Shown here in pieces: positions 3,539 to 59,100 of a stretch of 64,000 bases of DNA (positions are counted from its first letter, which is position 1; each line of letters opens with the position of its first letter). This DNA is from Candidatus Enterousia sp. GTDB lineage: Bacteria > Pseudomonadota > Alphaproteobacteria > Rs-D84. The stretch covers positions 532 through 64,531 of the forward strand of contig JAZLJO010000013.1 of NCBI GenBank assembly GCA_045617905.1. Direction: 5' to 3'. The notes below the pieces were generated by a model, which was not told the DNA's origin, ran no database searches, and was given only the letters and a program-made list of their open reading frames with translations. Made by a program: the position numbers and the translations under genes.

Positions 3539-3560
3539 TAAATTTTGCTGAAAATGTGTG

Positions 3561-3593
3561 CCACCGCCCATAAATGGGCGGTGGTTTGTTTTT
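3561..3593 (+). terminator. Intrinsic terminator
   Basis: CCACCGCCCAT-AA-ATGGGCGGTGG followed by T-rich tract. Confidence 0.75.
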
Positions 3594-3660
3594 ACGGTTG
3601 AAACGTGTTGTATGGTTTGATACCATTTGGGCGTAATTTAAGTAAACAAGGGGAAAATAT

Positions 3661-41598: not shown

Positions 41599-41689
41599 GG
41601 AGACGTCGCATAGTTGGTCTAGTGCGCTACATTGGAAATGTAGTATACCGGCAACGGTATCAAGGGTTCGAATCCCTTCGTCTCCGCCA
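41599..41689 (+). tRNA. tRNA-Ser(GGA)
   Basis: GGA anticodon, long variable arm, GCCA end. Confidence 0.95.
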
Positions 41690-41698
41690 CTAAAATTC

Positions 41699-41906
41699 AA
41701 CATCTCTGACAATGTTCAGAGATGTTCTTTTTTTGCCCGGTTCCCGGGGCTTTCTGTATATAAGGTTTCCAGTATATGCAAATGACAAAGCCAAATGTCC
41801 CAACATTTACCCATATGACATACCTTGCCAAAAATCCCGATGCCAGTTTAAGTATTTATAATCAATTTTTTACTATCTTGAACAAATCATTATCATTGAT
41901 TTTAAT
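41699..41906. repeat. Diverged direct repeat, copy 1 (includes relic of recombinase 3' end)
   Basis: Colinear with 47642-47850; minus strand reads IKINDNDLFKIVKN*. Confidence 0.7.
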
Positions 41907-42135
41907 TATTCAATATACTTTGTTTGAGCTCTCGGTCTGACTGTTTTTTATCTGATAAGGATATCTGTTTGGAACTTTTTGACAGATAAAATATGGTTCA
42001 TATCATGTTCTTCTTTATTTTTTTTATGTGAATTTTTTCTTGCGAAAAATACTATAAACTAATACGATTACAATGTTGATGTGTAATGTTTTCAAATGCA
42101 CGAAAAAACAAAAATCCAAAAACAAGGTTGCTAAA

Positions 42136-43680
42136 ATGAAAAGCCAAAAGAAAAATATTAAAAATCTCGGATATGAAAGCAATAAAAGTTTATATTGGGC
42201 AATAGGAACCGTATTAGTTTCTGAATTGTTGATGTTGATTATGAACGCTAATATTGTAACCATGTTTGTAACGGGGCTATTCTGTGCTGGTATAGGGGGA
42301 TTATTTGGTTACGATTTGACCAAACATACCTACAATAAATCTTGGTATCCAACTATTGGTATGTTAGGTACATTTGTTGGGATATTTATAGGACTTTATG
42401 GTTTAGATATTTCTAATGTTAATAAAGTTACAACAAGTTTATCAGAATTACTTAGCGGATTAAAACTGGCATTTATTACAAGTATTGTTGGGTTGATATT
42501 TTCTATTTTGCGTAAAGCTTGGGACTCTTTTGATTGGAATAAAATTGAAGAACTTGATACAGATATGGTGTTGCAATCAATCGATGAAAACACAAAGCAA
42601 ATAGATAATAATACGGCTATAGTCAATGAATTAGTTGCTCTGAAGACAGAATTCAAAAAGTTTGCTGTGAAGGTTTCAGAAACTGCAGCAGTCCAGTTTT
42701 CTAGTGCATTAAATGAAGTTGCAAGTGATCTTAACAATAAGTTGTCCGAACAATTTGGTTCTAACTTCAAGGCATTCGCTGGTTCTGTTGACAAGCTGGT
42801 CGATTGGCAAACAAAAAATAAAGAATATATGGAAAAATACACAAAGTATCTGACAGATTGTACAAATGCTTATAACGAAAAACTTGAACTCTTGGCAAAT
42901 TCTGCAGCCAGTGTTGAGAAAATTATGGCACAAACACAGCAACATATCACAGCCTTAAACTCATCTCTGAAAGAACTTGACTCATTGGGAGAACAGGCAC
43001 ATAAATTTATTCCTGAGATAAAGGCTGTAATTGCTGAAGCAGAAACAGAAATTAAAACAATTGGTGATACGAGTCAAGCTGTTGTGACTTCTGTTCAAGA
43101 AATAACAAAATCATCAGAAGAAGAATTACAGAAACTGCATGTTGAAATCAGAGATACTGTTATAGAGAATCTTGATGCAACGTCTGCGAAACTTATTGAT
43201 GGATTCAATGTTGTAATTGCTGAAGCAGAAACAGAAATTAAAACAATTGGTGATATGAGTCAAGCTGTTGTGACTTCTGTTCAAGAAATAACAAAATCAT
43301 CAGAAGAAGAATTACAGAAACTGCGTGTTGAAATTAAAGACGCTGTCATAGAGAATCTTAATAACACATCCTCTAAAATTGTTGATGGAATAAAAGATAT
43401 CTCTAAAAAGAACATCGAAGAAGTTCAAAAGGTGGCAACAAACACAGCCACTACGGTTGACAATATGGCAAAGATATTTGTTGAGGAGTCGGTTACCAAA
43501 TTACAAGGCGTTGTTGGTAGAATGGACAAACAATTGGGCGAAGCAGGCGGTTATATTGCAGGTGCATTAAGTAAAATGGGTGATGATTTATATTATTTGC
43601 ATAACAAGCTTGAAGACCAGAAAGAGCAGACAGAAAATCTTAAGCAGGAAACAAAAAAAATATCTAAAAAAGGTAAATAA
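42136..43680 (+). CDS. zorA: Zorya ZorA-like MotA/ExbB channel with long helical tail
   Basis: GMLGTFVGI and LLSGLKLAFITSIVG TM motifs, LSEQFGSNFK..LVDWQ, long coiled-coil tail. Confidence 0.85.
   Translation: MKSQKKNIKNLGYESNKSLYWAIGTVLVSELLMLIMNANIVTMFVTGLFCAGIGGLFGYDLTKHTYNKSWYPTIGMLGTFVGIFIGLYGLDISNVNKVTTSLSELLSGLKLAFITSIVGLIFSILRKAWDSFDWNKIEELDTDMVLQSIDENTKQIDNNTAIVNELVALKTEFKKFAVKVSETAAVQFSSALNEVASDLNNKLSEQFGSNFKAFAGSVDKLVDWQTKNKEYMEKYTKYLTDCTNAYNEKLELLANSAASVEKIMAQTQQHITALNSSLKELDSLGEQAHKFIPEIKAVIAEAETEIKTIGDTSQAVVTSVQEITKSSEEELQKLHVEIRDTVIENLDATSAKLIDGFNVVIAEAETEIKTIGDMSQAVVTSVQEITKSSEEELQKLRVEIKDAVIENLNNTSSKIVDGIKDISKKNIEEVQKVATNTATTVDNMAKIFVEESVTKLQGVVGRMDKQLGEAGGYIAGALSKMGDDLYYLHNKLEDQKEQTENLKQETKKISKKGK
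43026..43334 (+). repeat. Tandem duplication within zorA, 186-bp (62-aa) period
   Basis: 43026-43148 and 43212-43334 nearly identical. Confidence 0.92.
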
Positions 43681-43683
43681 TAA

Positions 43684-44379
43684 ATGTTTATAAAAACTCG
43701 TGATGACTCATCACACTTTATATCTTTATCTGACATTATGACCGCTCTTATGATGATATTCTTGTTTGTGTCCGTAGCAATTATTATGCAAATTCAAAAA
43801 CATAATGAAATCGTCACAAATATTCAGGCAAACTATAAAAAACAAAAAGAGATGTTGTACGCTGACCTACAAGCTGAATTCAAGGATGATATGTCTAAGT
43901 GGGGGGCTAAAATAAATGAAGAAACATTGTCTGTTTATTTTGCTGGGGATGATGTTAGGTTTGATACTGGGCAATCTGATGTAAAACCAGAGTTTAAAAC
44001 AACCTTAGCAGAATTCTTTCCACGTTATGTACAGCTTATAAAAAAACATAAAGATGCTATCCAAGAAGTTCGTATAGAAGGGTATACAGATTCAACAGGT
44101 AAGCTTGGACAAACCATAGAAGAAAGATACTTTTATAACATGAAACTTTCGCAGGATAGAACACGCAGTGTTTTGGAATACTGTCTAACGTTACCTAATT
44201 TCACTAAAGATGATTTTAACTATATGAAAGATTTTATAACCGCCAATGGGTTAAGTTTCTCAAGATACATTCGTGATTCTAAAGGACATGAGGACAAAGC
44301 TGCCTCAAGACGTGTTGAATTTAGAATTCTAACTAATGCAGAAGCGACCATCGAAAGCATTGTAAAGGAAATGAATTGA
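43684..44379 (+). CDS. zorB: Zorya ZorB-like MotB/OmpA protein
   Basis: ISLSDIMTALMMIFL TM with conserved Asp; IEGYTDS, NMKLSQDRTRSV, SRRVEF. Confidence 0.88.
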   Translation: MFIKTRDDSSHFISLSDIMTALMMIFLFVSVAIIMQIQKHNEIVTNIQANYKKQKEMLYADLQAEFKDDMSKWGAKINEETLSVYFAGDDVRFDTGQSDVKPEFKTTLAEFFPRYVQLIKKHKDAIQEVRIEGYTDSTGKLGQTIEERYFYNMKLSQDRTRSVLEYCLTLPNFTKDDFNYMKDFITANGLSFSRYIRDSKGHEDKAASRRVEFRILTNAEATIESIVKEMN

Positions 44380-45536
44380 AAATCGGATTAAAAGATACGG
44401 GAATTCATATCAATGATGTTCATCATTTAGATGACGCTGTTTGTGTATTGAAAAGCGTAGCAAACAAGTTAAATGCTCAACCTATCAAAATTCCAAAAAC
44501 GTTTTATGGAACGTTAGCAGAATTGGTTTCTGATGGGTTAATCACACCGCCTAGACTCGACGACAAAGGCGAGTTTATAAACACGCAGAGAGGCCATGTG
44601 CTGCGTGCTGCAAACGGAGAAATTGCGTACCTATATATACCAGATAAAGAAAATGCATATAAAAACCAAACAGATAGAAACAAGGTCCACATGTATTGGT
44701 GTAGAACTCTTGTTCAAATGTGGCAAGAAAACCATAAGGATCGATACTGGGGAACGACTGATGCCGAAGGGGTATTTGGTATGGAAAATGGTGCCAGAAT
44801 CAAGTTAAACGTTTGTCAGAATTGTTATCAATATATTGGAACATCAATATATGGCCCCTTAAATGATTTCGATTTTCAACGGTTTTCTGTTGATCATGCC
44901 AATAAAGGCAAGTTTTCGTATGGTAAAAAAACGTCCAACGAATCATACGTTTGGACGTGTTGTAAATGTGGAAAGACAATTCTTGATATAAATGAAGTAG
45001 AGATAAATAATTCGGAAACATATTGTTCTGATTGTTTTGATATAGAAAGTGTGTTTTTGCCGTTGGCAAAAGCAGAAAATATTTCTGATATTGATAATTG
45101 GGTTTCAAATACAAAAGATATCAATATTGTAGACCATAATGGGCAGAATGCACTTATGTATTTAGCTCAAAAGAATCCAAATGTTTCTCTAATACAAGCA
45201 ATGATTAAAAGATATCAATTTGATGTTAATGCAATAGACGAAAAAGGCAAAAATATTTTAATGTACTTGGTTGACCAACCAAAAACTAAAAACGAGGATC
45301 AACAATATAAAGCCTTATTACCTGTTATTAATATGTTAGCAAAACTTGGGGTAACTGTAAAGAGTCAGTCAGATAATGATCATAAAACAGCTATAGGATA
45401 TACTAAAAACTCGATTGTTCGTGATTATCTGTTATCTCAATATACTGCTGCGGGTGGGCATGTTCGTAGTAATAATCCGGTTAATACGGTATATGTAACA
45501 GATTCAAAAACAGGAATAATATCTCAACAGGAATGA
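44376..45536 (+). CDS. ZorE-like N-terminal region, Zn ribbon and ankyrin repeats
   Basis: KVHMYWCRTL..RY..LNVCQNC; CCKC...CSDC; DINIVDHNGQNALMY, DVNAIDEKGKNILMY; TTG start overlaps zorB stop. Confidence 0.65.
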   Translation: MKIGLKDTGIHINDVHHLDDAVCVLKSVANKLNAQPIKIPKTFYGTLAELVSDGLITPPRLDDKGEFINTQRGHVLRAANGEIAYLYIPDKENAYKNQTDRNKVHMYWCRTLVQMWQENHKDRYWGTTDAEGVFGMENGARIKLNVCQNCYQYIGTSIYGPLNDFDFQRFSVDHANKGKFSYGKKTSNESYVWTCCKCGKTILDINEVEINNSETYCSDCFDIESVFLPLAKAENISDIDNWVSNTKDINIVDHNGQNALMYLAQKNPNVSLIQAMIKRYQFDVNAIDEKGKNILMYLVDQPKTKNEDQQYKALLPVINMLAKLGVTVKSQSDNDHKTAIGYTKNSIVRDYLLSQYTAAGGHVRSNNPVNTVYVTDSKTGIISQQE

Positions 45537-45552
45537 CAGAAAGGAAACGTTT

Positions 45553-47622
45553 ATGTCAAATTTAACAAAATCTCAACAAGAATTTGTAAACAGCTCTAGC
45601 AAATTTATTCGTTTACTTGCACCAGCAGGTTGTGGTAAAACATTTTCAATAATTGAAAAAATTAAGAGTATTTGTGCACATAATTCCAAAGATAAAATCA
45701 GTGTTTTTACTTTTACTCGTGGTGCTGCAGAAGAAATTCGTGAACGTTGCGATAATGATACATGTGTAACAGTAAATACATTAAATAGTTGGGGAAATAA
45801 TTATATAAAATCTAACGTATTAAAAAATGCTCAGATTATTTCGACACCGAAAGATAGAAAATTCTGTTTGTTAAATCACTTACAACCAATTTGGGATAAA
45901 CCTGAATACCGTCAAACCTTTGGTAAATTGTTTACAAGCCGTTCCAAAACAAGATACAGCGAAACATTCTTGGAAATGATGGACGAATTCAAAAATATAG
46001 GGTTTGTACACTCATTGTTTACAAAAGATGAAAAGGCAGACAAAATTACCTATGAAAAACACGTAAACTTTATTAAAGAAGTCGGTTTGCAACGTTACTA
46101 TGAAGCTTTGACAGAAATTCTTAAACATGCCATAGGTGTAATTTGTATAGATGAAGCACAGACAACCGATTTTATGGTCAAAACCTGGATTCCTTTTTGG
46201 AAAGACTGTTGTGATCAAATGCAAGCCGCTGGTTTATACACACTTGATGATCAAAAATATTTAGCAAACATCGCGTTGCTTAAAAAAGTTGAGAAACGTG
46301 AAAAGTGGAACGGTACTGCTAAAATTGATTACATATTTGTTGACGAGTTTCAAGACACTAGCCCGCTTGATTTGATGTTAATATCTAATTTACAGCAGTT
46401 AAATGATGCAGGTTTGGTAATCGTAGGTGATGATGACCAGGCTATCTACGAGTTTCGTGGTGCGACGCCATACTTTATATTGCATCCAGATAAAATATTC
46501 GGTCAATTATTTACAACATATATTTTGGACGAGAATTTCAGATCTCCTGCTAACATAGTTGAAAAATCCATGGATTTAATATCAAATAACAAAAACAGAG
46601 TAGAAAAAAGAGTGTCTGCACATAACACAACCGATTCTGCGGAAATAAAACTTTTAACCTATTCAACGCAAGAGGAAATGATAGATCATGTTATCCGAGA
46701 TATTAACGACACTGTAAATTCTAAAGGAGAAACAGTCGCTGTGTTATCTCGGTTGAAAGCCAGTCTTTTGCCATACCAGGTTCTATTAACCAAGGAATCT
46801 GTACCATATTGTGTTAGTGATGACTTGGCGTTCTTTTTGACTGGGGCTGCAGAAAGCCTTAATCGAGTCATGGAAATAAAAAAGAAAAAAACAGAACCAA
46901 CTCGTGCGGATTTAATAGAATTAGTCTGCTTAGACAGTAAAAACGAAATATATAAAACACAAAAAGATACATTGACAAGACTGTTTTTAGCAAACAATGT
47001 AAAAAAAACTAATATTGAAGATGCATTACGTGCCATAGGTGAAAAATATCCAAAACAGTTTCAAAATCTTTTCACAGACGCTTTTATTACACATTTTATG
47101 AATGCAATGGATAAGTTTTTAAAGGCGGATAATGTGTACAATACACTCGAATGCATGTTGCGTGATTTTCAAGGATTAAAACAAAACTACAGCAGATCAC
47201 TGGAAGACTTGTATTATAGAGATCCGCCTCTTGCCAGCTTGTTGGATTTTGCTTCTAAATATGGCGATGATTACGAAAGCTTCCTTGAAGACTTTAATGC
47301 TGCGATAGCAACTGCCAGCTTGTCCAAAGATTCAAATGATAGATTGTTTGATACAGAACCAGCACGTGTGTTCTTGTCCACAGCATTACGTGTAAAAGGT
47401 CAACAGTTTGATAAAGTCATCATCTTAAATGTTGATGATGGAACTTGGCCAAAGTCTCAAGCTCAAACGAATGATGATGCATATGAAGCAGAACGTAGAT
47501 TGTTTTACGTTGCTACAACAAGATCAAAGAAAACTTTGCATTTGTATCGAGGAAACGAATATCATAATGAGAGTACAACAATATCGCCTTTCGTTTTGGA
47601 AGGAAATTACAATAAAAAATAA
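45553..47622 (+). CDS. UvrD/Rep (SF1A) helicase
   Basis: APAGCGKT, FTRGAA, VDEFQD, VGDDDQAIYEFRGA, ENFRS, ERRLFYVATTR. Confidence 0.92.
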   Translation: MSNLTKSQQEFVNSSSKFIRLLAPAGCGKTFSIIEKIKSICAHNSKDKISVFTFTRGAAEEIRERCDNDTCVTVNTLNSWGNNYIKSNVLKNAQIISTPKDRKFCLLNHLQPIWDKPEYRQTFGKLFTSRSKTRYSETFLEMMDEFKNIGFVHSLFTKDEKADKITYEKHVNFIKEVGLQRYYEALTEILKHAIGVICIDEAQTTDFMVKTWIPFWKDCCDQMQAAGLYTLDDQKYLANIALLKKVEKREKWNGTAKIDYIFVDEFQDTSPLDLMLISNLQQLNDAGLVIVGDDDQAIYEFRGATPYFILHPDKIFGQLFTTYILDENFRSPANIVEKSMDLISNNKNRVEKRVSAHNTTDSAEIKLLTYSTQEEMIDHVIRDINDTVNSKGETVAVLSRLKASLLPYQVLLTKESVPYCVSDDLAFFLTGAAESLNRVMEIKKKKTEPTRADLIELVCLDSKNEIYKTQKDTLTRLFLANNVKKTNIEDALRAIGEKYPKQFQNLFTDAFITHFMNAMDKFLKADNVYNTLECMLRDFQGLKQNYSRSLEDLYYRDPPLASLLDFASKYGDDYESFLEDFNAAIATASLSKDSNDRLFDTEPARVFLSTALRVKGQQFDKVIILNVDDGTWPKSQAQTNDDAYEAERRLFYVATTRSKKTLHLYRGNEYHNESTTISPFVLEGNYNKK

Positions 47623-47641
47623 ATGTGAGGGTATAAGATTA

Positions 47642-47850
47642 AACATTTCTGACAATAGTTAGGGATGTTCTGTTTTGGCTAAAGTGCTGGATGGTAAGTA
47701 CGAGATTTTTGGTATGTATTATGATCTGATACAAACTTATTAAAAAATTCACTGAATATATACTTTGCATAAAATCATGATGCAAGGTTGAATATTTATA
47801 ATTGATTATTTCTAGCAATCTGAAACAAATCATTAACATTAATTTTTAAT
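47642..47850. repeat. Diverged direct repeat, copy 2
   Basis: Colinear with 41699-41906; overlaps 3' end of serine recombinase. Confidence 0.7.
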
Positions 47851-49385
47851 CGCCCAGACAAGATTTGATTTATCTTGTCTGGATTCATATATGCAATGTC
47901 CAGGTATCTATAAAATTGTCGTGGTGATGTATGTAGTTTTGCAATGGTTACGTCCACATTTCCATCTTGCTCGTATAACTCTTTGTATCGCCAAGCTGTG
48001 GCGAAAGCCTTGACTATTAGGTGGTTGTTATCGGTAATGCTTAGTACACCGTTTTTACCGTGGTCGTATACTGTGTTAACGTATTTCCGTAGAAACACTT
48101 TTTCTGTAATTGTTATACAGTTATCACCTGTGATATATTCCATCTGTTGAGCATTTTGATTCGCATAATTATCAGATACAAACAGCTGTAATTTTTGTGT
48201 GTCTGTAGTAATCGTATAAATTAGTTGTTCTTGAGAATATACGACTTTTTCAATCAAACATCGAATAAAAGTTCGTTTTTGTGCATATGACATTTCTGTT
48301 ATATTGATGCGTTTTAATGTGCTGGATATGTCTATTGGCAAGGCGGACATATTACTGTTCAGAAAATCTGTTACTGTCTTAATCACAATGTTATCAATCT
48401 GTGGTGCGGGCAGATAAAATCCCTTGGTTGCGTAATAATGCATTTTCTTTTTACCTTTGCCACTGGTCATTTGATTGAAAAATTTAGTACCTTTATGATT
48501 AAACAATTTTCCGGTTAATATATTTGGAACACGCGTACTCGTTGATTTGTTATTGGAATTATTAGCCAGTGCAACTTGCACGCGTTCAAATAATTCTGGG
48601 GACACAATCGGTTCATGTTCTCCTTTGGCAAATGTGCCTTCTTTTTTGTTTTCGATCATTCCAATATATATTTTATCGCGTAATATTCGATGCATACTCA
48701 TTTTACTAATCGGATTACCACCACGTATTTGTCGTTTTGCTGTCTCCCATCGTTTACCAAATATACCATTTTGTTTTGCATATTCAGTTAAATCATTCAC
48801 AGATTGCAATTCCAGATATTTTTCAAACAGATGTCGTATTTGTGTGGCTTCGGTTGGATTTACTACCAACTTCTTATTTACCAGGTCATACCCTAAACGT
48901 GGTGCACCACCCATCCATAGGCCTTTGGCCTTTGATGCACGGATTTTATCCCGAGCGCGTTCACTTGATACTTCACGTTCAAATTGGGCGAATGATAGCA
49001 ACATGTTCAATGTTAGTTTACCCATTGATGTACTGGTATCAAATGATTGGGTAATGGACACAAAATTAGCACCGTATTTTTCGAAATACTTCATCATATT
49101 GTGGAAATCCAGGATTGAGCGCGATAATCGGTCAACCTTATAAACAACCACGGTATTAACCAAGCCATGCGCCATATCATCTAGCATTTGCTTTAACGCT
49201 GGTCGTTCCATAGTTCCACCTGATATAGCCGCATCACTGTATGTTTTATAATATTGCCAGCCATTAAACGCCTGTGAAGCAATATAAGCCTTACATGCTT
49301 CTTCTTGGTTTTGCAAAGAATTAAACTCTTGGTCAAGCCCATGTTCTGTTGATTTACGGGTGTAAATTGCACACTTAATTGTCAT
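47796..49385 (-). CDS. Large serine recombinase
   Basis: CAIYTRKS, SGGTMERPAL, VYKVDRLSRS, FAQFERE, GEHEPIVS. Confidence 0.93.
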   Translation of the reverse strand: MTIKCAIYTRKSTEHGLDQEFNSLQNQEEACKAYIASQAFNGWQYYKTYSDAAISGGTMERPALKQMLDDMAHGLVNTVVVYKVDRLSRSILDFHNMMKYFEKYGANFVSITQSFDTSTSMGKLTLNMLLSFAQFEREVSSERARDKIRASKAKGLWMGGAPRLGYDLVNKKLVVNPTEATQIRHLFEKYLELQSVNDLTEYAKQNGIFGKRWETAKRQIRGGNPISKMSMHRILRDKIYIGMIENKKEGTFAKGEHEPIVSPELFERVQVALANNSNNKSTSTRVPNILTGKLFNHKGTKFFNQMTSGKGKKKMHYYATKGFYLPAPQIDNIVIKTVTDFLNSNMSALPIDISSTLKRINITEMSYAQKRTFIRCLIEKVVYSQEQLIYTITTDTQKLQLFVSDNYANQNAQQMEYITGDNCITITEKVFLRKYVNTVYDHGKNGVLSITDNNHLIVKAFATAWRYKELYEQDGNVDVTIAKLHTSPRQFYRYLDIAYMNPDKINQILSGRLKINVNDLFQIARNNQL

Positions 49386-49812
49386 TGTTTACCTTTTTAT
49401 TTAATCCGAAAAAATCAGGTCCAGACACCTTAGAGCCTGTAATATCTTTTGCTATTGCAGATAATGTTTTGTATTTCTTATCTAGGTATGTAAAAGTATC
49501 ATCATCATCATTTTTTATTACTTTATGTTCTACTCCTCTAAAAGTTTTTATTATTGTAAAACCTGTGGGGATGTTATATTTGTGCTTTGTTACTTTGTTT
49601 AGGCATATATCAGGATTTTCTTTGTATTTCTTTATTTTAAGCATATATTTTGCTTCTATTTTTAATTTTTGCCGATCGCATTGTATGTAATACCAAAGTG
49701 CTTTGGTTTGACGTTTATATTCTGAATCTGGAACATATTTATTCCAAAGTGCCGATCGATCTGAAAAAGGTAAATTTTGTAGTTCTTTATAGCTATTTGG
49801 TAACTTTATCAT
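49375..49812 (-). CDS. DUF2924-like protein
   Basis: FRGVEHKV, YKTLSAIAKDITG..VSGPDFFGL; coupled to recombinase. Confidence 0.8.
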   Translation of the reverse strand: MIKLPNSYKELQNLPFSDRSALWNKYVPDSEYKRQTKALWYYIQCDRQKLKIEAKYMLKIKKYKENPDICLNKVTKHKYNIPTGFTIIKTFRGVEHKVIKNDDDDTFTYLDKKYKTLSAIAKDITGSKVSGPDFFGLNKKVNNDN

Positions 49813-49872: not shown

Positions 49873-49937
49873 CATTAAATATTTATTGTCACATGTATTT
49901 TGCATATGTATAATACAAGATATATTTGGAGGTTTAT

Positions 49938-50573
49938 ATGACAAAAGGACTGGTGTATTTTGCGAGAAATTCTGCTTTTCAACATTTGACAAAAATAGGA
50001 AAAACCTCAAAATTAAATGTTGAAGAAAGAGGGTTGACGGCTAGTAATGTGCCGGAAGATTTTGATTATTTGGCGGTATTGCATTGTGATGATATGGATT
50101 CTATAGAATGCAAAATACACGAACAATTTAAAATGTTTCGTCATTATTCGGCGACAGGTAGAAAAACTGAATTTTTTTGGAGTGGTTGTATAGATGATGC
50201 GATTAAATATGCTAGAGATTTGAAAGGTGTGAGTGATATTACTGAAACCGAAACTGAAGAAATACCTGTAATAGTAAACGGAGAACAGCACACAGCTCGT
50301 CGTCCAAATACTACCTTTAAAATGATTGGTTTGGAAAAAGGGTGTAAAATTTTGTTAGATAACGATCCTAACAAAGTGGCAATTGTAGAAGATGATAAGA
50401 ATTTAATATCGTATAAAGACCAAGCGCCTCAACCCATTTCTAATGTTGTAAATCAGATCAAAGCTCCAGGAAGATATAACGGCTTTTTGTATTTTTATTA
50501 TAAAGGCAAACGATTGTTTGATATGCGGCCAGATATGCAGCAACCTGATGAATTGTGTTTATTTAACGATTAA
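49938..50573 (+). CDS. T5orf172/GIY-YIG-like domain protein
   Basis: GLVYF..KIGKT..R, SNVPEDF, IECKIH, TEFF. Confidence 0.75.
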   Translation: MTKGLVYFARNSAFQHLTKIGKTSKLNVEERGLTASNVPEDFDYLAVLHCDDMDSIECKIHEQFKMFRHYSATGRKTEFFWSGCIDDAIKYARDLKGVSDITETETEEIPVIVNGEQHTARRPNTTFKMIGLEKGCKILLDNDPNKVAIVEDDKNLISYKDQAPQPISNVVNQIKAPGRYNGFLYFYYKGKRLFDMRPDMQQPDELCLFND

Positions 50574-50574
50574 A

Positions 50575-50775
50575 TTAAACGCCTTCTTCTATATCGAACC
50601 ATGTTGATATTTTGATAACGACAGGGGTTCTTTTTGAACGTTTTAGTGTCTTTGCATACTCTGATAATTGTGCGGATAAATCACAGTTATTGAGTGCTTT
50701 AATGCATTCGACAATAAAGTCCGTATTAGTATGGTAATTATAAGTTTTTATAGTGATTTCAGGATATTTGATCAT
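50575..50775 (-). CDS. Small hypothetical protein
   Basis: AAGGAG RBS and repeated promoter motif upstream. Confidence 0.6.
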   Translation of the reverse strand: MIKYPEITIKTYNYHTNTDFIVECIKALNNCDLSAQLSEYAKTLKRSKRTPVVIKISTWFDIEEGV

Positions 50776-50800
50776 AATAACTCCTTTTTAAGGTTGTTTA

Positions 50801-50831
50801 ATTACCGCTCTAAAGGGGCCAGAAGTCAAGT
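50801..50831 (-). promoter_or_regulatory. Repeated promoter motif, copy 2
   Basis: 27 of 31 bases match 49842-49872. Confidence 0.6.
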
Positions 50832-50950
50832 TTTTATTTGTATAAATATTTAATATTGTGATATTGCAAAAACAATAACGCTATATGTAATATTTTAATA
50901 TTGTATTTTTTTTATTGACTTTTGTTTCGGGTTTGGTTATATTATATGAC

Positions 50951-51514
50951 ATGAAATATAAAAAATTAGAGTCTTTTTCGACAATAAAATCCGGATACGC
51001 CTTTCGTGGCGCCATTATGGATGAAACGGATGGGAAAACGATTGTAATTCAACCAAAGGATGTAATCTCTGGGTTTGACGGTGATTTTGTCCGTATCAAG
51101 TCGGCTTCTGTTTCTGAGCGTCATATTTTGGAACGCGGTTCTGTTCTTGTGACTAATCGTGGGGCGTTTTGTGCGTGTGTATTTAATGAGCGTTTCAAGG
51201 CGATCACAACAAGTGGGGTTTTCGTTATAATGTTGCAACATGATTCTGGTATAACACCAGAGTATCTTGCTCTGTATATCAATTCTGATGTTGGGCAACG
51301 TCAGATTGCGTCGAAACAAGAATCGATGACTGTGCCGGCTTTAACTATTAAGCAGATGCAAGAATTGGAAATACCGATTATTTCAATAGAAAAGCAAGAT
51401 TTGTTATCAAAAGCGTTTAACCTATCACAACGTTGCAAGGGTATTGTTTTAGAAATACAAAAACAAAATAAAAGTTTAATAAATCAAGTAATCAAAGGGG
51501 CAATAGATGGCTAA
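50951..51514 (+). CDS. Single-TRD HsdS-like protein
   Basis: SGYAFRG, PEYLALYINS, LEIPII..KQ; half the length of HsdS. Confidence 0.75.
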   Translation: MKYKKLESFSTIKSGYAFRGAIMDETDGKTIVIQPKDVISGFDGDFVRIKSASVSERHILERGSVLVTNRGAFCACVFNERFKAITTSGVFVIMLQHDSGITPEYLALYINSDVGQRQIASKQESMTVPALTIKQMQELEIPIISIEKQDLLSKAFNLSQRCKGIVLEIQKQNKSLINQVIKGAIDG

Positions 51515-53009
51515 AATTACACAGGATGAATTGAATAAATTATTGTGGGCGGCGGCCGACTCTGCACGGGGTACGGTTGATGGCGGCGTGTTCAAAGATT
51601 ATGTCTTGGCGCTGTTGTTCTATAAATATATGTCGGATATGCATCGTGTCGAGCGGGCAAAATTGGTCGAACGTTATGGCGATGATAAAGAACGTATAGA
51701 AATGCGTTTGAAAAATGCCCGTTTTGTGATGCCGGATGGTGCTAGCTTTTACGATGTTTACGCACAGCAGTCTGCCGATAATATTGGCGAAGTATTAAAC
51801 GTTGCATTGCAACAAATTGAAGATGCCAACGACGAAAAACTGCACGATATATTTACTGTTGATTTTAATTCTCAGGCAATTCTTGGTCCAACGGCTCAAC
51901 GTAACAAAATGATACGTGACCTATTAAATGATTTTAATAAGGCTGATTTAAGCGAAGTAGATGACGATATTCTTGGAAATGCATACATGTACATGATCGA
52001 GAAGTTCGGAACCGAAGCCGGTAAAAAGGCTGGGGAGTTCTTTTCGCCACGTACTTTGTGTAAATTGGTTGCTAAATTGGCAGAGCCCAAACCTGGTAAT
52101 CGTATATGTGATCCAACGTGCGGTTCTGGCGGGTTGTTATTACTGGCCGGTGCCGAAATAGAAAAAACAAGATCCAAGGATTATGCATTATATGGCCAAG
52201 AAAAAACAGGTGCAACATACAATTTGGCGCGTATGAACATGTTTTTGCATGGACTGGATTCGGCGCGTATTGAATGGGGTGATACGCTAAATAACCCTTT
52301 GTTGCGCGATGGTAATGGGTTGATGAAATTTGATGTTGTGGTTGCCAATCCGCCATTTTCATTGGATAAATGGGGCGATAAATCGCTAGAAAATGATAAA
52401 TACAATCGTTTCTGGCGCGGTATGCCCCCGGCCAGCAAGGGCGATTATGCATTTATATCCCACATGGTTGAAACGGCCAAAGCCAAAGAAGGACGCGTTG
52501 CAGTGATTGTTCCGCACGGTGTTTTATTCCGTGGTTCATCCGAAGGCCGTATTCGCAAAGCGCTTATAGAAGAAAATATTTTGGATGCGGTTATTGGTTT
52601 GCCGTCGGGACTGTTTCAGACAACTGGCATCCCGGTTGCAGTGTTGATTTTCGACAGAAGTCGTGAGCCAGGTGGTATCAACGAAAACCGTAAAAATGTT
52701 TTGTTTATTGATGCCAGCCGTGAATTTACAGCCGGCAAGAATCAAAATACATTGTCGGACGAAAATATTGCAAAAATCGTGGATACATATAAAAAACGCA
52801 GTGAAATTGAAAAATATTCACACGTGGCGACATTTGATGAAATCAAGGAAAACGATTTCAATCTGAATATTCCACGCTATGTTGATACATTCGAAGAAGA
52901 AGCACCTGTGGACATTCCGGCAACCCGCAAACGCATCGCCGAACTAACCGCCGAACTGTCCAAAACCACCGCAGAAATGGAAAAATATTTGAAAGAATTG
53001 GGGTTGTAA
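51507..53009 (+). CDS. hsdM: Type I RM methyltransferase subunit
   Basis: AGEFFSP, DPTCGSGG, ANPPFS, FNLNIPRYVD. Confidence 0.95.
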   Translation: MAKITQDELNKLLWAAADSARGTVDGGVFKDYVLALLFYKYMSDMHRVERAKLVERYGDDKERIEMRLKNARFVMPDGASFYDVYAQQSADNIGEVLNVALQQIEDANDEKLHDIFTVDFNSQAILGPTAQRNKMIRDLLNDFNKADLSEVDDDILGNAYMYMIEKFGTEAGKKAGEFFSPRTLCKLVAKLAEPKPGNRICDPTCGSGGLLLLAGAEIEKTRSKDYALYGQEKTGATYNLARMNMFLHGLDSARIEWGDTLNNPLLRDGNGLMKFDVVVANPPFSLDKWGDKSLENDKYNRFWRGMPPASKGDYAFISHMVETAKAKEGRVAVIVPHGVLFRGSSEGRIRKALIEENILDAVIGLPSGLFQTTGIPVAVLIFDRSREPGGINENRKNVLFIDASREFTAGKNQNTLSDENIAKIVDTYKKRSEIEKYSHVATFDEIKENDFNLNIPRYVDTFEEEAPVDIPATRKRIAELTAELSKTTAEMEKYLKELGL

Positions 53010-53019
53010 AGGATGAAAA

Positions 53020-53604
53020 ATGGCCTGTTTTAAAAATGATGCTTGGAAAAATTTTGATAATATTAAGTCTAAAAAATTTATTTGTTGGAATTGCAACAAT
53101 ATGGTTGCTAGTCAATACGGATATATGACAAAAAATGGATTAAGCCATATTTATATTTGCCCACATTGTAGAGCACCTCATGTTGAGGATGAAAACAATG
53201 TAGAAATCCCCGGTGTTTTGCCGGGTAAATCAATACAGAGATTGCCAAAAGAAATAGAAACAGTGTATGAAGAAACACGAAATTGTATTGCTGCTGGTGC
53301 ATACACTGCTACCGTTATGATTTTGCGTAAAATTTTGATGAATTTGGCTGTCGAAGAAGGCGCCAAGGAAGGCGATAGTTTTGCACATTATGTTGATTAT
53401 TTGTGCGAGAATGGTTTTGTGCATAGACGACAGCACGAACAAGCAAAAAGAATTCAACGTCTTGGCAATGATGTAAACCATAAAATTGAATCACGAACCA
53501 AAGAAGATGCGTTAGAATTATTAAATTTGGTTCAATTGATTTTGATAAATAATTATGAACAAGCGGATGAACTCGTTAAAAAGGAACCTGTAGTAGTGAT
53601 GTAA
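53020..53604 (+). CDS. DUF4145 (HEPN-like) protein with N-terminal Zn ribbon
   Basis: CWNC/CPHC, YEETRNC..AYTA..LRK, RLGNDVNH. Confidence 0.75.
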   Translation: MACFKNDAWKNFDNIKSKKFICWNCNNMVASQYGYMTKNGLSHIYICPHCRAPHVEDENNVEIPGVLPGKSIQRLPKEIETVYEETRNCIAAGAYTATVMILRKILMNLAVEEGAKEGDSFAHYVDYLCENGFVHRRQHEQAKRIQRLGNDVNHKIESRTKEDALELLNLVQLILINNYEQADELVKKEPVVVM

Positions 53605-53616
53605 AGAGGTATAGAA

Positions 53617-54186
53617 ATGGAAAGAATTGTAGAAGTTTTGTTGTCTGGTGCCGTTGGGGCATTGTTGGTATGGGTATTGCAGTTTTTTACTGAGCGTCGT
53701 CGTAGACGTTATGAACGTAGGTTATATATTTTGCGTTCATTGATTGCTAATTCGGCTAATATTGTATCAGTTGATTTTGTGTCCGCATTTAATATGATAT
53801 TGATTGAATATAATTCAAAGTCCGTTGTTCGTGAGTGGCATGGCAAATTTATGGAACACGTCACCCAAAGACCAGCATCAGATGAAGAAGAAGCAAAAAT
53901 CAGAAATAAAAAGTTTGAATCGATTTTGATAAAGTTAATCGAAGAGATAGCAAAATCTATACACATAAGAATAGAACAGTTAGATTTGGCAGATAAAATT
54001 TATTGGCCACGTGGCTTCGCGGATGTTGCTGAAAAACAACAAAAATTAACAGATTTATTGATAGATAACCACGGATATTGGAATAATTTATTAGAACAAG
54101 CAGTCAATCAAGATAGACAGATTTTGTTGGAAACAAAAAAGATCCCTGAAACAGCAAATAAGAGAAAAAAAGATGCAAATGAATAA
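53617..54186 (+). CDS. Hypothetical protein with N-terminal TM helix (DUF6680-like)
   Basis: TM followed by Arg run, FVSAFNMI..EY, IYWPRG. Confidence 0.55.
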   Translation: MERIVEVLLSGAVGALLVWVLQFFTERRRRRYERRLYILRSLIANSANIVSVDFVSAFNMILIEYNSKSVVREWHGKFMEHVTQRPASDEEEAKIRNKKFESILIKLIEEIAKSIHIRIEQLDLADKIYWPRGFADVAEKQQKLTDLLIDNHGYWNNLLEQAVNQDRQILLETKKIPETANKRKKDANE

Positions 54187-55378
54187 TGTGCCGTTTGACT
54201 GGAAAATGAATAAATTAGGTCACGTTGCCGATGTTTTTGATGGGACGCATCAGACACCGGAATATGTTGACCATGGTATAAAATTTATCAGTGCTGAAGA
54301 TATTTCTGATCCCAGTGCCTCCACAAAATATATAACACATCAAGCATTTGAAAATAATTTTAAAATACGCCCTAACAAAAACGATATTTTTATGACACGC
54401 ATAGGCCGTATAGGAATACCCTTTTTGTTAAAAACCGATGAAGATTTTGCTTATTATGTTACATTGGCATTGTTAAAATTAAAACGTGACGTTGTCCCAG
54501 AATATTTATTTTACTTCATTCAAGGTAATTATTTTCAATTTGAACTATGGAAACGCACATTACACGTAGCTTTCCCAGAAAAGATAAATAAAGACGAAAT
54601 CGGAAAGTGTCTTGTTTTATATCCCGATAATATCACAGAACAGAAAAAGATTGCGGAGATATTGGGGACGTGGGATCGGGCGATTGAAGAATTGACAGAT
54701 CTGATTACTGAAAAGAAGGAGTTAAAACGCGGTTTGATGCAACGATTGTTGACGGGTGCCCAACGCCTGCCAGGTTTTACAAAACCGTGGAAAAATAAAA
54801 AAATTGGCGATATAACACATATCGCAACGGCGGTCAGCAAATCACAATATATAAAAGAAACTGGACCATATCTTATTGTTGATATGGGAGCTGTTTCAAA
54901 TGAGGCGACACTTATAGCAAAAAAACAAACAGATTATGAAGGTGACTTTTTAGCATGTGGTGATCTTATAATGCCAAAAGACGACATTGGTGGGGGAAAT
55001 ATCATAGGAAAAACGGTGGTTGTCGATTGTAATAATAAATATATTCTTGGAGACCATGTTTTTAAAATACACGTGATGGGTGAATATGATGCTAAATTTA
55101 TATCGAATGTAATCAATTCATTTGATGTGAATAAATATATGCGAAGAATGTCTACGGGCTCAGCCCAGCTTGGGTTGGCAAAACGAGATGTGGAAAAGTG
55201 TGTGTTGTTTGTGCCAACGGAACTTGCAGAGCAAAAAGCTATTGCTGACGTATTGTCTAAGGCGGATTCAGAAATTGATTTATTAAATCAGCAACTGGAT
55301 CTACTGAAAGAGCAAAAACGCGGCCTGATGCAGAAATTATTAACTGGCGAAATACGTGTAAAGGTGGATAAAAAATAA
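54173..55378 (+). CDS. hsdS: Type I RM specificity subunit
   Basis: Two TRDs, EQKKIAEIL/EQKAIADVL, KRGLMQ.LLTG repeats. Confidence 0.93.
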   Translation: MQMNNVPFDWKMNKLGHVADVFDGTHQTPEYVDHGIKFISAEDISDPSASTKYITHQAFENNFKIRPNKNDIFMTRIGRIGIPFLLKTDEDFAYYVTLALLKLKRDVVPEYLFYFIQGNYFQFELWKRTLHVAFPEKINKDEIGKCLVLYPDNITEQKKIAEILGTWDRAIEELTDLITEKKELKRGLMQRLLTGAQRLPGFTKPWKNKKIGDITHIATAVSKSQYIKETGPYLIVDMGAVSNEATLIAKKQTDYEGDFLACGDLIMPKDDIGGGNIIGKTVVVDCNNKYILGDHVFKIHVMGEYDAKFISNVINSFDVNKYMRRMSTGSAQLGLAKRDVEKCVLFVPTELAEQKAIADVLSKADSEIDLLNQQLDLLKEQKRGLMQKLLTGEIRVKVDKK

Positions 55379-55430
55379 CTCTAGGGTGATAACGTTACCA
55401 GGACGTCATAGCACTACCTAGAGAATTTCG
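55370..55430 (-). ncRNA. Candidate small hairpin RNA divergent from Abi-like gene
   Basis: CTCTAGG/CCTAGAG stem with inner stems, T-tract after it, consensus promoter directly upstream. Confidence 0.55.
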
Positions 55431-55435
55431 AGGTG

Positions 55436-55464
55436 ATTATAACAAAAAAGCGAAAAAATGTCAA
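55436..55464 (-). promoter_or_regulatory. Consensus sigma70 promoter
   Basis: TTGACA-17 bp-TATAAT on minus strand. Confidence 0.8.
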
Positions 55465-55514
55465 GCGAATATTTAAGACGCTAAAAGATAAAATTATGTA
55501 AAGGGGATTCTAAA

Positions 55515-56183
55515 ATGAATTTATTACAACTAAAAGAACACTTTTCAGAAGAACGTATGTATTCTTATGAAGAATTGGCTTTGCAGCGTGGATTGTCTGC
55601 AGAAGCAGCTATAGACCTGTATAAGTTAAATATATTATTATGTGAAGAACTTTATTCTTTGATCTGTTGTTTAGAAGTTTGTCTTAGAAACAAGATTCAC
55701 GATAAATTGACAGAAACTTTTGGTACAGAAGATTGGTTTTCTTGCGAGTGTGTAAAATGGGGCGATAGGCATTCAAAAGATATAGAAAATACGGTAGCAG
55801 AAATAAAGAAACGTAAACATATTGATGTTGTACGACCGGATCAAATGGTGTGTGGACTAAATTTTGGTTTTTGGTGCCATGTTTTTGATAATTGCTATGA
55901 AAATTGTCTGTGGACAGCAGGTTTGAATAAAATTTTCCCTCATTATATGGGGCGCCCAAACAGAAAACATATTGCTCAATCTTTAACCCAATTACTAAAA
56001 ATAAGAAACAGAATAGCGCATTTCGAAATAATTATCAAAGATGAAAAAGAATTGTTGGCATCTCACAATAAGATGGTAGAAGTAATAAATTGGTTTTCGC
56101 CCGAAATATATTTATGGTTTAAAAGCTTTAATAATTTTGAAAAACTATATAACAATCTGCAAAATAATACTTTTGACGAATAG
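55515..56183 (+). CDS. Abi-like (AbiD/AbiF, Abi_2) HEPN protein
   Basis: FSEER, LY..N, LEVCLRN, LNFGFW, RNRIAH (RxxxxH). Confidence 0.85.
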   Translation: MNLLQLKEHFSEERMYSYEELALQRGLSAEAAIDLYKLNILLCEELYSLICCLEVCLRNKIHDKLTETFGTEDWFSCECVKWGDRHSKDIENTVAEIKKRKHIDVVRPDQMVCGLNFGFWCHVFDNCYENCLWTAGLNKIFPHYMGRPNRKHIAQSLTQLLKIRNRIAHFEIIIKDEKELLASHNKMVEVINWFSPEIYLWFKSFNNFEKLYNNLQNNTFDE

Positions 56184-56193
56184 GGGGTTGATT

Positions 56194-59100
56194 ATGACAA
56201 ATATTGATAATCCATTTTATTTACCAGATTTTGATGAGGCATCTAGCAGCCAAATCCCGGCTATTATTCAGTTAATCAATATGGGCTATTCATATATTGG
56301 ACGGCACGAAGTTGAAAAGATGCGTGAATCTCATGGACAATATATTTTGCGAGATATCGCATTTGATGCATTACGTAACATAAATGATCCTGCAAAAATA
56401 TCTGATGCCAGTATCCGTGAAGCCATTTTAGATCTTGAAAAGATAAAGATGGACGATGGTATTATCAAAGCATCTGAAACTTTGTTTTTTAATTTGCTGG
56501 CCGGTGTTGGTGTGTCTGAAATAATAGAAGGGAAAAAAACATCGCCACAGTTGCGTTTCATTGATTGGGAACATCCAGAAAACAACAAGTTTCATATTGT
56601 TCCGGAATTTGAAATATCAGAAGAACAAAATCGCCGTCCAGATATTGTGTTGTTTGTCAACGGAATTCCATTCGCAGTAATAGAAAACAAAAAAGCGTCT
56701 GTTCCTGTGGACGAGGCTGTTAAACAAATGATACGTAACCAATCTGGCAACCAAACACCAAAATTCTTTATTTATCCACAGATCCTAATAGCGACAAATA
56801 TCAATGAATTAAAATATGGGACCATGTTGACCCCTCGTGAATTTTATTCTGTATGGAAAGAAAAATATAAAAGCCCAACATTTAACGATGATGTTTTTAA
56901 TTCTGTAAACAGAATGTTACCGGATGAACAAATAAAACAGATATCTGCTGACTTATTGCGAAATAATTATGTTCAGGGTTTGAAAGAAAATTTAACAGCA
57001 CAAGATTATAGTATTTACAGTTTATTAGAACCGAAACGTATGTTAGATATTGTGCGTAATTTTGTGATTTATGACAATGGAATAAAAAAATTACCACGAT
57101 ATCAACAATATTTTGCAATAAAAAAGACTTTAGAACAGATAGAAAAACAAGACAATAAAGGCAAAAGACACGGTGGGGTTATTTGGCATACTCAGGGCTC
57201 AGGGAAATCGTTGACTATGGTTATGTTGACCAAGAATTTGATCGAGCACATTCAAAACCCACGCATCATAGTTGTAACAGATAGAACAGATCTTGATATA
57301 CAAATACGTGATACATTCAAAGCATGTAATATCAAAGTTGGTGTTCAACAGGCAACATCTTGTAAAGATCTTATAAATAAAATCAAATCAAAAACAACAG
57401 ATGTTATAACAACATTGGTACAAAAGTTTGAACCAACAAAATTCAAGGATACAGACAATAATATATTTATTCTTATTGATGAGGCGCATCGTAGCCAAGG
57501 TGGTGAAGATAATGGCAATATGAACATGGTATTACCAAATGCTTGTCAAATTGCTTTTACAGGTACACCCTTAATGACGAAGAAAAAACGTACAACAGAA
57601 ACAAAATTTGGTGGCATTATTGATTCCTATACAATATCAGAGGCAGAGGCAGATGGGGCTATATTGCCATTGATTTATCAAGGACGCTTTGTAGATCAAG
57701 AAATAAATCCAATTGTGAATAAATTCTATGAGCGTATATCACAACCAATGTCAGAATCTGCACGTAAAGATTTTGAAAAAAAATGTGTGTCCAAATCAGT
57801 ATTAGAAGAAACTTCTCAACGAATAGATATGATCGCAACAGATGTTTATGATCATTATACAAAATATTTCCAAGGAACCGGATTAAAAGGACAATTGGTT
57901 GCTCCGTCTAAATATGCAGCAGTTATGTTCCAAAATGCATTAGAAATGCTTGGTAATATAAAAACTGCAGTTGTTATTTCTGATTCACAAACAAGCGAAT
58001 CCGATGAAGATAAATTGCCAGAACAAAAAGCAGTGGTTGAACGTTATTTGCAAGAACAAAAACGAAAATATGGTTCATTAGAATCTCGTGAAAAACAAAT
58101 TATTCAAGATTATAAGAAGAATCCAGAAGGTATAGAACTATTGATCGTTGTTGATAAATTGTTAACAGGATTTGATGCACCACGCGATACTGTTTTGTAT
58201 TTAGCCAAGCAATTACAAGATCATAATTTGTTACAGGCAATTGCCAGGGTTAATCGTCTGTTTGATGGAGACAAAGACAAACAGGCAAAAACAAACGGTC
58301 TGATTGTAGATTATTCTAAAAATGCTAAGAATTTAAAAAATGCATTGGAATTATTCTCTAACTATGATCCAAGTGATATAAATCGTGCTTTATTAGATAC
58401 AGACGAACAAATTAAAATGTTAGAAAGTTTGTATCAAAAATTATATAGTGCTTTTGCAGACATCAAGGATATTCATAATACTGATGCTTATGTTCAAAAG
58501 TTATTAGATCCAAGTAATGAAGAATTAAAAAAAGAATTTTATGAAAATGTAAATAATTTTATAAAAACATTTTCTTCGTGCTCAAGTTTATATGATTTTT
58601 ATGAAAAATTTGATGAAGAAAAACTAAAACGTTATAAATTAGATTTAAAACGTTTTGTAGAAATAAAAAAGACAGCCCAACTTGCAAATGGTGAAACTGT
58701 CGATTTTTCAAAATATAAAGACCAGTTACGTAAATTATTAGATAAATATGTAACAGCTAATGATGTAGAAGTGCTATCTCAAGAAATCAGTTTGACGGAT
58801 ATGAGAGAATTTAACCAATTTATAGAAGATGAAAAGCAGGGATTGTCAAAACGTTCTCAAGCCAAAGCAATTGCCGCACAAACTAGCCGAGTTATAAGCG
58901 AACGTTATAAACAAGACGAAGTATTTTATAAGAATTTTTCAGACAGAATTAATAAATTGTTAGAAGAATTGCGAACTGCAAAAGCAGAAGACATTGCCGC
59001 ACTATTTGATCAAGTAAAAGATATTCAAGTCCAAGTTGAAAATTATGAAGACTCAGATATCCCAGAAGCTTTACATAATCAAAAACACACACATGCATTT

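Follow-up and report, generated by a model that had tools for sequence, protein, structure and literature searches.

In the present study, we examined a four-gene operon in a window of 64,000 nucleotides, which is the whole stretch of DNA analysed, from the alphaproteobacterium Candidatus Enterousia sp. (assembly GCA_045617905.1, contig JAZLJO010000013.1). Open reading frame (ORF) calling placed zorA, zorB, a third gene named ORF3, which is ZorE-like and carries ankyrin repeats, and the gene of a UvrD-family helicase in one orientation on the forward strand at 42136-47622. In each of the three Zorya types described so far, the ZorAB motor works together with DNA-binding or DNA-cutting proteins, and the effector of type II is considered to be the nickase ZorE. 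The original prediction, made from the sequence alone, regarded the operon as a Zorya variant with an ankyrin adaptor and a helicase in place of the HNH nuclease, and this reading is supported by the computational analysis reported here. We believe, with a probability of about 0.68, that the helicase is an integral and co-evolving component of the system. Comparative genomics suggests a coupling of the motor with the ankyrin domain and the helicase.

Linkage of the helicase to ORF3

The helicase belongs to superfamily 1 (SF1), and the Pfam domains UvrD-helicase (112.1 bits, 4.9e-32) and UvrD_C (101.3 bits, 9.9e-29) were both found above cut-off. Its best PADLOC matches are GajB models (3.3e-43), and among the NCBIfam models PcrA, UvrD and Rep score about as well as GajB, all below threshold. 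The motifs which we take to be Walker A (G26-T30), II (DEFQD, D264-D268), III (GDDDQ, G292-Q296), IV (NFRS, N328-S331) and VI (ERRL-Y-V-TR, E647-R657) show no variation in 11 of 11 clade members. The protein thus has the N- and C-terminal UvrD domains and the motifs of the SF1A group formed by UvrD, Rep and PcrA. The source genome carries elsewhere a housekeeping UvrD-like gene and an AddA-like gene, so the helicase of the operon is an additional one.

The four genes of the window are separated by 3 nt, an overlap of 4 nt and 16 nt, in agreement with the layout predicted at first. In the two related cassettes, L001 on a genome contig and L003 on a metagenome contig, the corresponding junctions are 3, -4 and 3-4 nt, and the gap between ORF3 and the helicase gene is 3-16 nt across the three cassettes. 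To survey the order, 328 genomes were searched with a helicase threshold of E <= 1e-100. The helicase was found in 10 of them, all within the genus of the window, and full-length ankyrin-ZorE in four (G000, G475, which holds the L001 contig, G536 and G552), with the helicase gene adjacent in all four. In G536 and G552 (loci L042 and L043), it lies upstream of zorA in divergent orientation, about 155 nt away, which makes a second gene order; identity to the window is only 37% for ORF3 and 61% for the helicase at these loci. The question left by the original prediction, whether helicase homologues accompany zorAB elsewhere, can be answered: they stand with zorAB and ankyrin-ZorE at every such locus with visible context, in two gene orders, and the co-occurrence is further backed by the tree and the co-divergence given below.

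Five further lineages have ORF3-like and helicase proteins from contigs of exactly equal size, linkage there being deduced from size and not from observed adjacency. The sizes are 28475 (P0011, P0015), 5615 (P0134, P0018), 38189 (P0158, P0221), 15323 (P0139 with P0040 and P0240) and 19516/20249 (P0138 and P0157 with P0177 and P0183), and within the lineage of the window itself there are five more such matches. A maximum-likelihood tree was built from 43 helicases, two rows identical to L048 and L049 and the partial P0040 having been left out; in it, all Zorya-linked helicases formed one clade of 13 rows with an ultrafast bootstrap of 100 and an SH-aLRT (approximate likelihood-ratio test) value of 99, and none of six stand-alone helicases fell inside it. 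Pairwise identities of ORF3 and of the helicase were strongly correlated over eight pairs, three of them assigned through equal contig size (Mantel r 0.965, a value attained in 2 of 5000 permutations). No UvrD-type gene was present within the fetched flanks of six canonical Zorya II loci (L002, L028-L032); the sole UvrD match, at L031, covers 47 residues on the opposite strand, and the L030 sequence ends 1.2 kb past ZorE.

Beyond the order, the helicase was used to search 401 genomes sampled across the class, and only the window's own genome was returned; contig scans gave one locus from metagenomes and two from genomes. Searches of plasmids by tblastn with ORF3 and with the helicase gave no match, and of 84 pattern matches to the ORF3 alignment in viral contigs none was confirmed. 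Proteins of 169 aa that consist of the ZorE N-domain were considered as further helicase partners and rejected, the helicase being found at E <= 1e-100 in none of five genomes with such a short ZorE.

Several observations weigh against an integral helicase. The five linkage cases from equal contig sizes were drawn without DNA, and the cases verified on DNA come from one genus and only two independent lineages. At six of the ten other helicase loci (L044-L049), helicases 49-58% identical to that of the window occur without zor genes; no zor gene lies within 7-12 kb and no neighbours are common to these loci. Since such stand-alone homologues exist, it is possible for this type of helicase to work, or at any rate to be maintained, in the absence of Zorya. 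In three of 11 loci (the window, L046 and L048), the helicase gene has a homologous serine recombinase as its neighbour. Moreover, according to the accessible text of PMC13192584 and 10.1101/2025.09.15.676423, Zorya II of E. coli is found in conserved arrays next to other systems that have helicases of their own, and the synergy between them involves no stable complex, so conserved adjacency need not mean one machine. Finally, the cassette encodes no nuclease, which makes the last, killing step the weakest part of the model with the helicase as effector.

These points, as far as they concern the stand-alone homologues of the same genus and the E. coli arrays, whose synergy needs no constitutive complex in those sources, together with the separate divergent transcription unit of the helicase at L042 and L043, would fit a Zorya part and a helicase that are two systems and not one machine. 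We consider this unlikely, though it survives better than any other alternative. In that case the Zorya part alone would be left with no recognisable effector, the HNH loop being gone in 14 of 14 ankyrin-clade sequences; the Zorya-linked helicases form a clade which excludes the stand-alone ones and co-diverges with ORF3; the spacing of 3-16 nt is kept in three cassettes; and a second Zorya architecture with ankyrin repeats and a helicase exists (L060 and L061, described below). On balance, we read the helicase as one from a stand-alone lineage that was probably captured once by a ZorE lacking HNH and has been inherited with it since.

The stand-alone genes themselves form sister helicase clades, found as single genes in varied contexts, with the serine recombinase as neighbour in L046 and L048. 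L044 and L045 are syntenic, which reduces the six loci to five independent contexts. These helicases may have an uncharacterised single-gene defence or mobile-element function.

ORF3, the motor genes and a second architecture

ORF3 descends from ZorE: the N-domain and both sets of zinc ligands are retained, the HNH loop is lost, and ankyrin repeats replace the usual C-terminus. The PADLOC model ZorE2 matched at 6.5e-14 over residues 73-171 only. PF26739, which probably corresponds to DUF8245, the ZorE N-terminal domain, is precomputed on all eight ORF3 homologues (clusters). The family is rare, with eight clusters at E <= 1e-3 among 5.8 billion proteins, and the N-terminal 228 residues had 25 representatives among 1.84 billion proteins. 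From 16 of these 25 matches plus P0001, P0010 and P0012, nine short or fragmentary proteins (88-205 aa) being left out, we made an alignment of 19 sequences, 11 canonical ZorE-like and eight of the ankyrin clade. All 11 canonical proteins keep the loop L-x-x-H-H-x-N-G-x-K-x-D ... N-L-x-x-L-C-x-x-C-H, and in one of them, the ZorE of L002 (252 aa), the Pfam HNH domain was detected. In eight of eight ankyrin-clade proteins the catalytic loop and about 20 residues before the first Cys pair are deleted and the final His is missing, and the same losses, with the zinc ligands retained, were seen again in all 14 ankyrin-clade sequences of a second alignment. The eight metal ligands (H105, C109, C147, C150 and C195, C198, C217, C220) are invariant in the 19 sequences. 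The Pfam HNH domain is absent from ORF3, which lacks the HNH catalytic residues of Zorya type II, and no other nuclease family was detected in it by Pfam, NCBIfam or PADLOC.

For the ankyrin part, the single-sequence match to Pfam Ank_2 (residues 239-300) reached 25.8 bits, just short of the cut-off of 27.3, and the family profile matched many designed ankyrin proteins with a best E of 4.5e-11; PF12796 is precomputed for the window's own ORF3 protein. A ZorE-like protein with ankyrin repeats, as proposed at first, thus stands on both of its halves, and the loss of HNH, which had only been implied, is now seen as a deletion. After the repeats, at 45492-45536, ORF3 ends in the motif Y-x-[TSV]-D-x-[KR]-[TS]-G and an acidic end. 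The tail motif is common to the window lineage, L042/L043 and P0157 despite an overall identity of 32-37%, and it could be a docking peptide.

In E. coli, ZorE consists of an N-terminal DUF8245, a central HNH domain and two zinc sites, and the substitutions H226A (HNH) and H90A (N-terminal zinc site) each abolish defence, as described in the accessible part of a 2026 preprint (PMC13192584). The same text states that N-domain residues are required for defence and that activity depends on intermediates containing single-stranded DNA. Nuclease-less ZorE variants were filtered out in the ZorE analysis described there, so that such forms were set aside and not studied. It is improbable, in our opinion, that the effector role has stayed with ORF3, which would exert it by some activity other than HNH or by clamping DNA, with the helicase as only an accessory for preparing the substrate: the invariance of the N-domain and both zinc sites and the properties of E. 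coli ZorE just named would agree with such a role, and yet the His-Asn-His positions are deleted together with their loop, not merely substituted, and no other nuclease family was detected by the three resources. The preferred reading remains the one in which the helicase is a component of the system.

The ZorA and ZorB of the window are type II-like, as had been suggested from their motifs. PADLOC assigned ZorA2 (2.8e-35) and ZorB2 (2.5e-82, full length, residues 5-230), and in both cases the type II models outscored those of type I. Pfam MotA_ExbB (28.1 bits, cut-off 22.9) was found in ZorA and OmpA (38.3 bits, cut-off 27.2) in ZorB. About 350 residues follow the membrane part of ZorA, the long tail that is a feature of Zorya, and the transmembrane Asp D17 of ZorB is kept in nine of nine ZorB sequences covering that region. 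In NCBIfam, the type II Zorya equivalogs rank first for zorA, zorB and ORF3, with scores that miss the cut-offs (ZorA2 81.5 against 700, ZorB2 179.7 against 400 and ZorE 32.7 against 600 bits). The ZorA tail holds a tandem duplication (Table 1), of which L003 has one copy while L001 has a different indel, so the length of the tail differs among close cassettes.

By following ZorE proteins of 169-173 aa that consist of the N-domain only, we reached a second and independent architecture in the genus of the window. At L060 and L061, a packed operon encodes an SNF2 helicase (917-953 aa; PADLOC DrmD about 1e-178, ZorD1 about 1e-39), an ankyrin protein (198-205 aa; Ank_2 2e-30), ZorA, ZorB and a ZorE N-domain (169-171 aa). 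These operons share with the window a helicase, ankyrin repeats, type II-like ZorAB, a ZorE N-domain without HNH and tight packing. They differ in that the helicase is of superfamily 2 (SF2), DrmD-like and located upstream, whereas that of the window is an SF1 UvrD; in addition, the ankyrin repeats form a separate protein of about 200 aa, and the ZorE piece has no second zinc ribbon. Identity between the two ankyrin proteins is 38%, and their similarity to the ankyrin part of ORF3 is only generic. That a ZorE without nuclease is accompanied by a helicase and ankyrin repeats in two distinct arrangements argues for a place of both parts on the effector side of these systems. We found no published description of this architecture. 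At L060, a separate ZorE with HNH lies just upstream of the operon, and at L061 genes for type III restriction-modification and for an SF1 helicase carrying DUF2726 come after the operon.

The cassette and its genomic setting

The four genes are one mobile unit, a 5.6-kb cassette in a defence island beside a tRNA-Ser gene. By blastn, L001 and L003 match the window only at 42017-47627 and are homologous to each other over the equivalent span, and all flanks differ, which bears out the suggestion that the genes are bounded as a unit. Identity between the copies is 96% for ZorB, 93-96% for the helicase, 82-88% for ORF3 and 70-74% for ZorA. Among the three copies, the ratio of nonsynonymous to synonymous substitution rates (dN/dS) was 0.04-0.07 for zorA, 0.014-0.024 for zorB, 0.014-0.023 for the helicase gene, 0.036-0.045 for the N-terminal half of ORF3 and 0.062-0.094 for its ankyrin half. 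All four genes are under purifying selection. Decay of the locus was considered and is ruled out by these values.

For zorA, the start at 42136, which was also the one first proposed, is preferred, since the equivalent ATG is used in L001 and L003 behind a conserved AACAAGG-N7-ATG and a stop codon precedes it in L001. The promoter-like site upstream of zorA is a consensus match just outside the conserved cassette, and the regional total of such sites, 25 against 29.3 expected, shows no excess. At the position equivalent to the terminator-like hairpin of the window, L001 has a clear hairpin with a T-run. The coordinates of these and the other features are collected in Table 1.

Table 1. Features of the operon, its surroundings and the second architecture; positions refer to the window unless a locus is given
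Feature	Coordinates	Strand	Description	Source
zorA	42073/42136-43680	+	MotA-like membrane motor subunit with long helical cytoplasmic tail; two alternative starts; 514 aa from 42136	ORF list, PADLOC, Pfam
Tandem duplication in ZorA tail	43003..43374	+	186 nt (62 aa), 87% identity	Repeat search
zorB	43684-44379	+	MotB-like, transmembrane Asp D17, OmpA-type peptidoglycan-binding domain	ORF list, PADLOC, Pfam
ORF3	44376-45536	+	TTG start	ORF list
ORF3, N-terminal part	44376..45050	+	ZorE-type N-domain, then second Cys4 ribbon; HNH catalytic loop deleted	
ORF3, C-terminal part	45051..45536	+	Ankyrin repeats (about residues 226-360) and short conserved tail	
Helicase gene	45553-47622	+	SF1 UvrD-family, 689 aa	ORF list, Pfam, PADLOC
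Promoter-like site	41979..42006	+	TTGACA-16-TATCAT, 11/12 consensus matches, upstream of zorA	
Terminator-like hairpin	47642..47669	+	3' of helicase stop; also begins right direct-repeat copy	
tRNA-Ser (GGA)	41599..41689	+		ARAGORN
Left direct-repeat copy	41691..41903	+	Hairpin and remnant resembling serine recombinase 3' end	Repeat search
Right direct-repeat copy	47634-47846		Extends into 3' end of large serine recombinase gene	
Large serine recombinase	47796-49385	-	Pfam Resolvase, Recombinase; context, outside system	Pfam
DUF2924 protein	49375-49812	-	Pfam DUF2924; context, outside system	Pfam
Second-architecture operon, L061	L061:7720-13508	-	Same genus as window	
Second-architecture operon, L060	L060:7790-14335	-	Same genus as window	

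In four of five genomes of the same genus, homology to the window ends at the end of the tRNA-Ser gene, and because synteny with relatives stops there, this gene is the edge of an integration hot spot. The cassette is flanked by an imperfect direct repeat of about 215 nt, the copies being 77-80% identical at a spacing of 5940-5943 nt. The arrangement suggests that related islands accumulated in tandem at tRNA-Ser and that the left recombinase was lost. In G077, of the same genus, the recombinase and DUF2924 genes come directly after the tRNA-Ser gene and the Zorya cassette is absent, and two other genomes of the genus have neither. That the helicase is a replication or transfer function of this neighbouring mobile element (serine recombinase and DUF2924), next to a decaying Zorya remnant, is very improbable in spite of the homologous recombinase adjoining it in the window, L046 and L048 and of the repeats beside tRNA-Ser: cassette homology goes no further than the stop codon of the helicase gene, which leaves the recombinase outside, no such recombinase lies in the fetched flanks of L001, L003, L042 and L043, G077 has the recombinase pair without helicase or Zorya, and the dN/dS of all four genes (0.014-0.094) rules out decay.

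Downstream of the recombinase, at 49926-59361, the window contains a T5orf172 protein and a methyltransferase-like gene (51507-53009), two ORFs (50915-51514 and 54173-55378) that match the same PHROG family, which has no name, and an ORF of 1074 aa (56137-59361). This region has the appearance of a restriction-modification cluster in which specificity-type genes are duplicated. L001 is surrounded by a C-5 methylase, an AIPR protein and a WYL protein. A WYL-WCX gene lies 70 nt downstream of ORF3 in L042 (7972-9000, +) and L043 (3115-4143, -), and in L001 a WYL-WCX protein with a fused UDG-like domain is encoded some 2 kb upstream of the cassette (2401-3849, +); no such gene is present within the cassette of the window. 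These WYL-WCX proteins are possible regulators.

Relation to known systems and a proposed mechanism

In its working the system comes closest to Zorya, and the origin of its first three genes lies in type II. With type II it shares the ZorA2- and ZorB2-type motor genes, placed first and in the same order, and a third gene homologous to the N-domain of ZorE with its zinc ligands; it differs from type II in that ORF3 has no HNH loop and an ankyrin C-terminus, and that an SF1 helicase is linked as a fourth gene. With type I it shares a logic, as far as this is laid out in the accessible text of PMC11946911, in which a motor is combined with a partner that binds DNA and with an effector that contains a helicase and is recruited to the activated motor. 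In type I, however, ZorD is an SF2 helicase of the SNF2 kind fused to a nuclease, whereas the helicase of the window is of the SF1 UvrD type and has no nuclease domain, and ORF3 is unrelated to ZorC. Models of ZorC, ZorD, ZorF and ZorG were absent from the four PADLOC matches of ORF3 and from the 25 of 46 helicase matches listed. The resemblance to Gabija is confined to the helicase, whose matches to GajB are as strong as would be expected for any UvrD-family helicase. Gabija itself was considered and ruled out, no match to GajA (OLD-family ATPase/TOPRIM nuclease) being found among the four genes by PADLOC.

With the PADLOC profiles, the check that had been asked for at first, the operon gave ZorA2, ZorB2, a partial ZorE2 and a GajB-like match, with no match to a four-gene subtype. 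The expectation that no catalogued subtype would correspond to it held for PADLOC-DB 2.0 and for the literature searched. In that literature, supplementary files aside, we found no Zorya described as having ankyrin repeats or a UvrD helicase, and the name 'Zorya type IV' or an equivalent was not found in it.

By analogy with the Zorya systems studied so far, a ZorA5B2 complex would sense the perturbation of the envelope at phage entry and would signal to, or recruit, soluble partners through the ZorA tail. ORF3 may then be recruited as a nuclease-dead DNA-binding adaptor, comparable to ZorC in type I, and its ankyrin repeats may hold, bring or activate the helicase at the entering phage DNA. 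The helicase would be the effector, unwinding or stripping the phage DNA, which would be exposed to host nucleases or blocked in replication. Such a division into adaptor and helicase would resemble the one that type I has in ZorC and ZorD. Our confidence in this specific mechanism is lower than in the helicase as a component of the system. As a wider proposal, put forward tentatively and at somewhat less than even odds, the ZorAB motor drives a non-nucleolytic effector, in which a nuclease-dead ZorE docks on DNA and ankyrin repeats deliver the helicase; this ankyrin-plus-helicase solution would have arisen at least twice from type II Zorya, once as a fused ankyrin-ZorE with an SF1 UvrD helicase and once as a free ankyrin protein with an SF2 SNF2 helicase, and would represent a new subtype or subtypes.

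The hosts are gut Alphaproteobacteria with small genomes, recovered from metagenomes only, and their defence biology is essentially unstudied. The stand-alone sister helicases of the same genus offer a comparison for the co-option of a free-living defence or repair helicase. The operon is a natural, conserved and selected variant in which the cutting site of ZorE has been deleted and a dedicated helicase recruited in its place. It provides a clean test of which part of ZorE contacts the motor, of whether Zorya immunity needs a nuclease, and of how new effectors can be plugged into one sensor. It is suggested that the variant may reveal how the Zorya membrane motor works through a different kind of effector.

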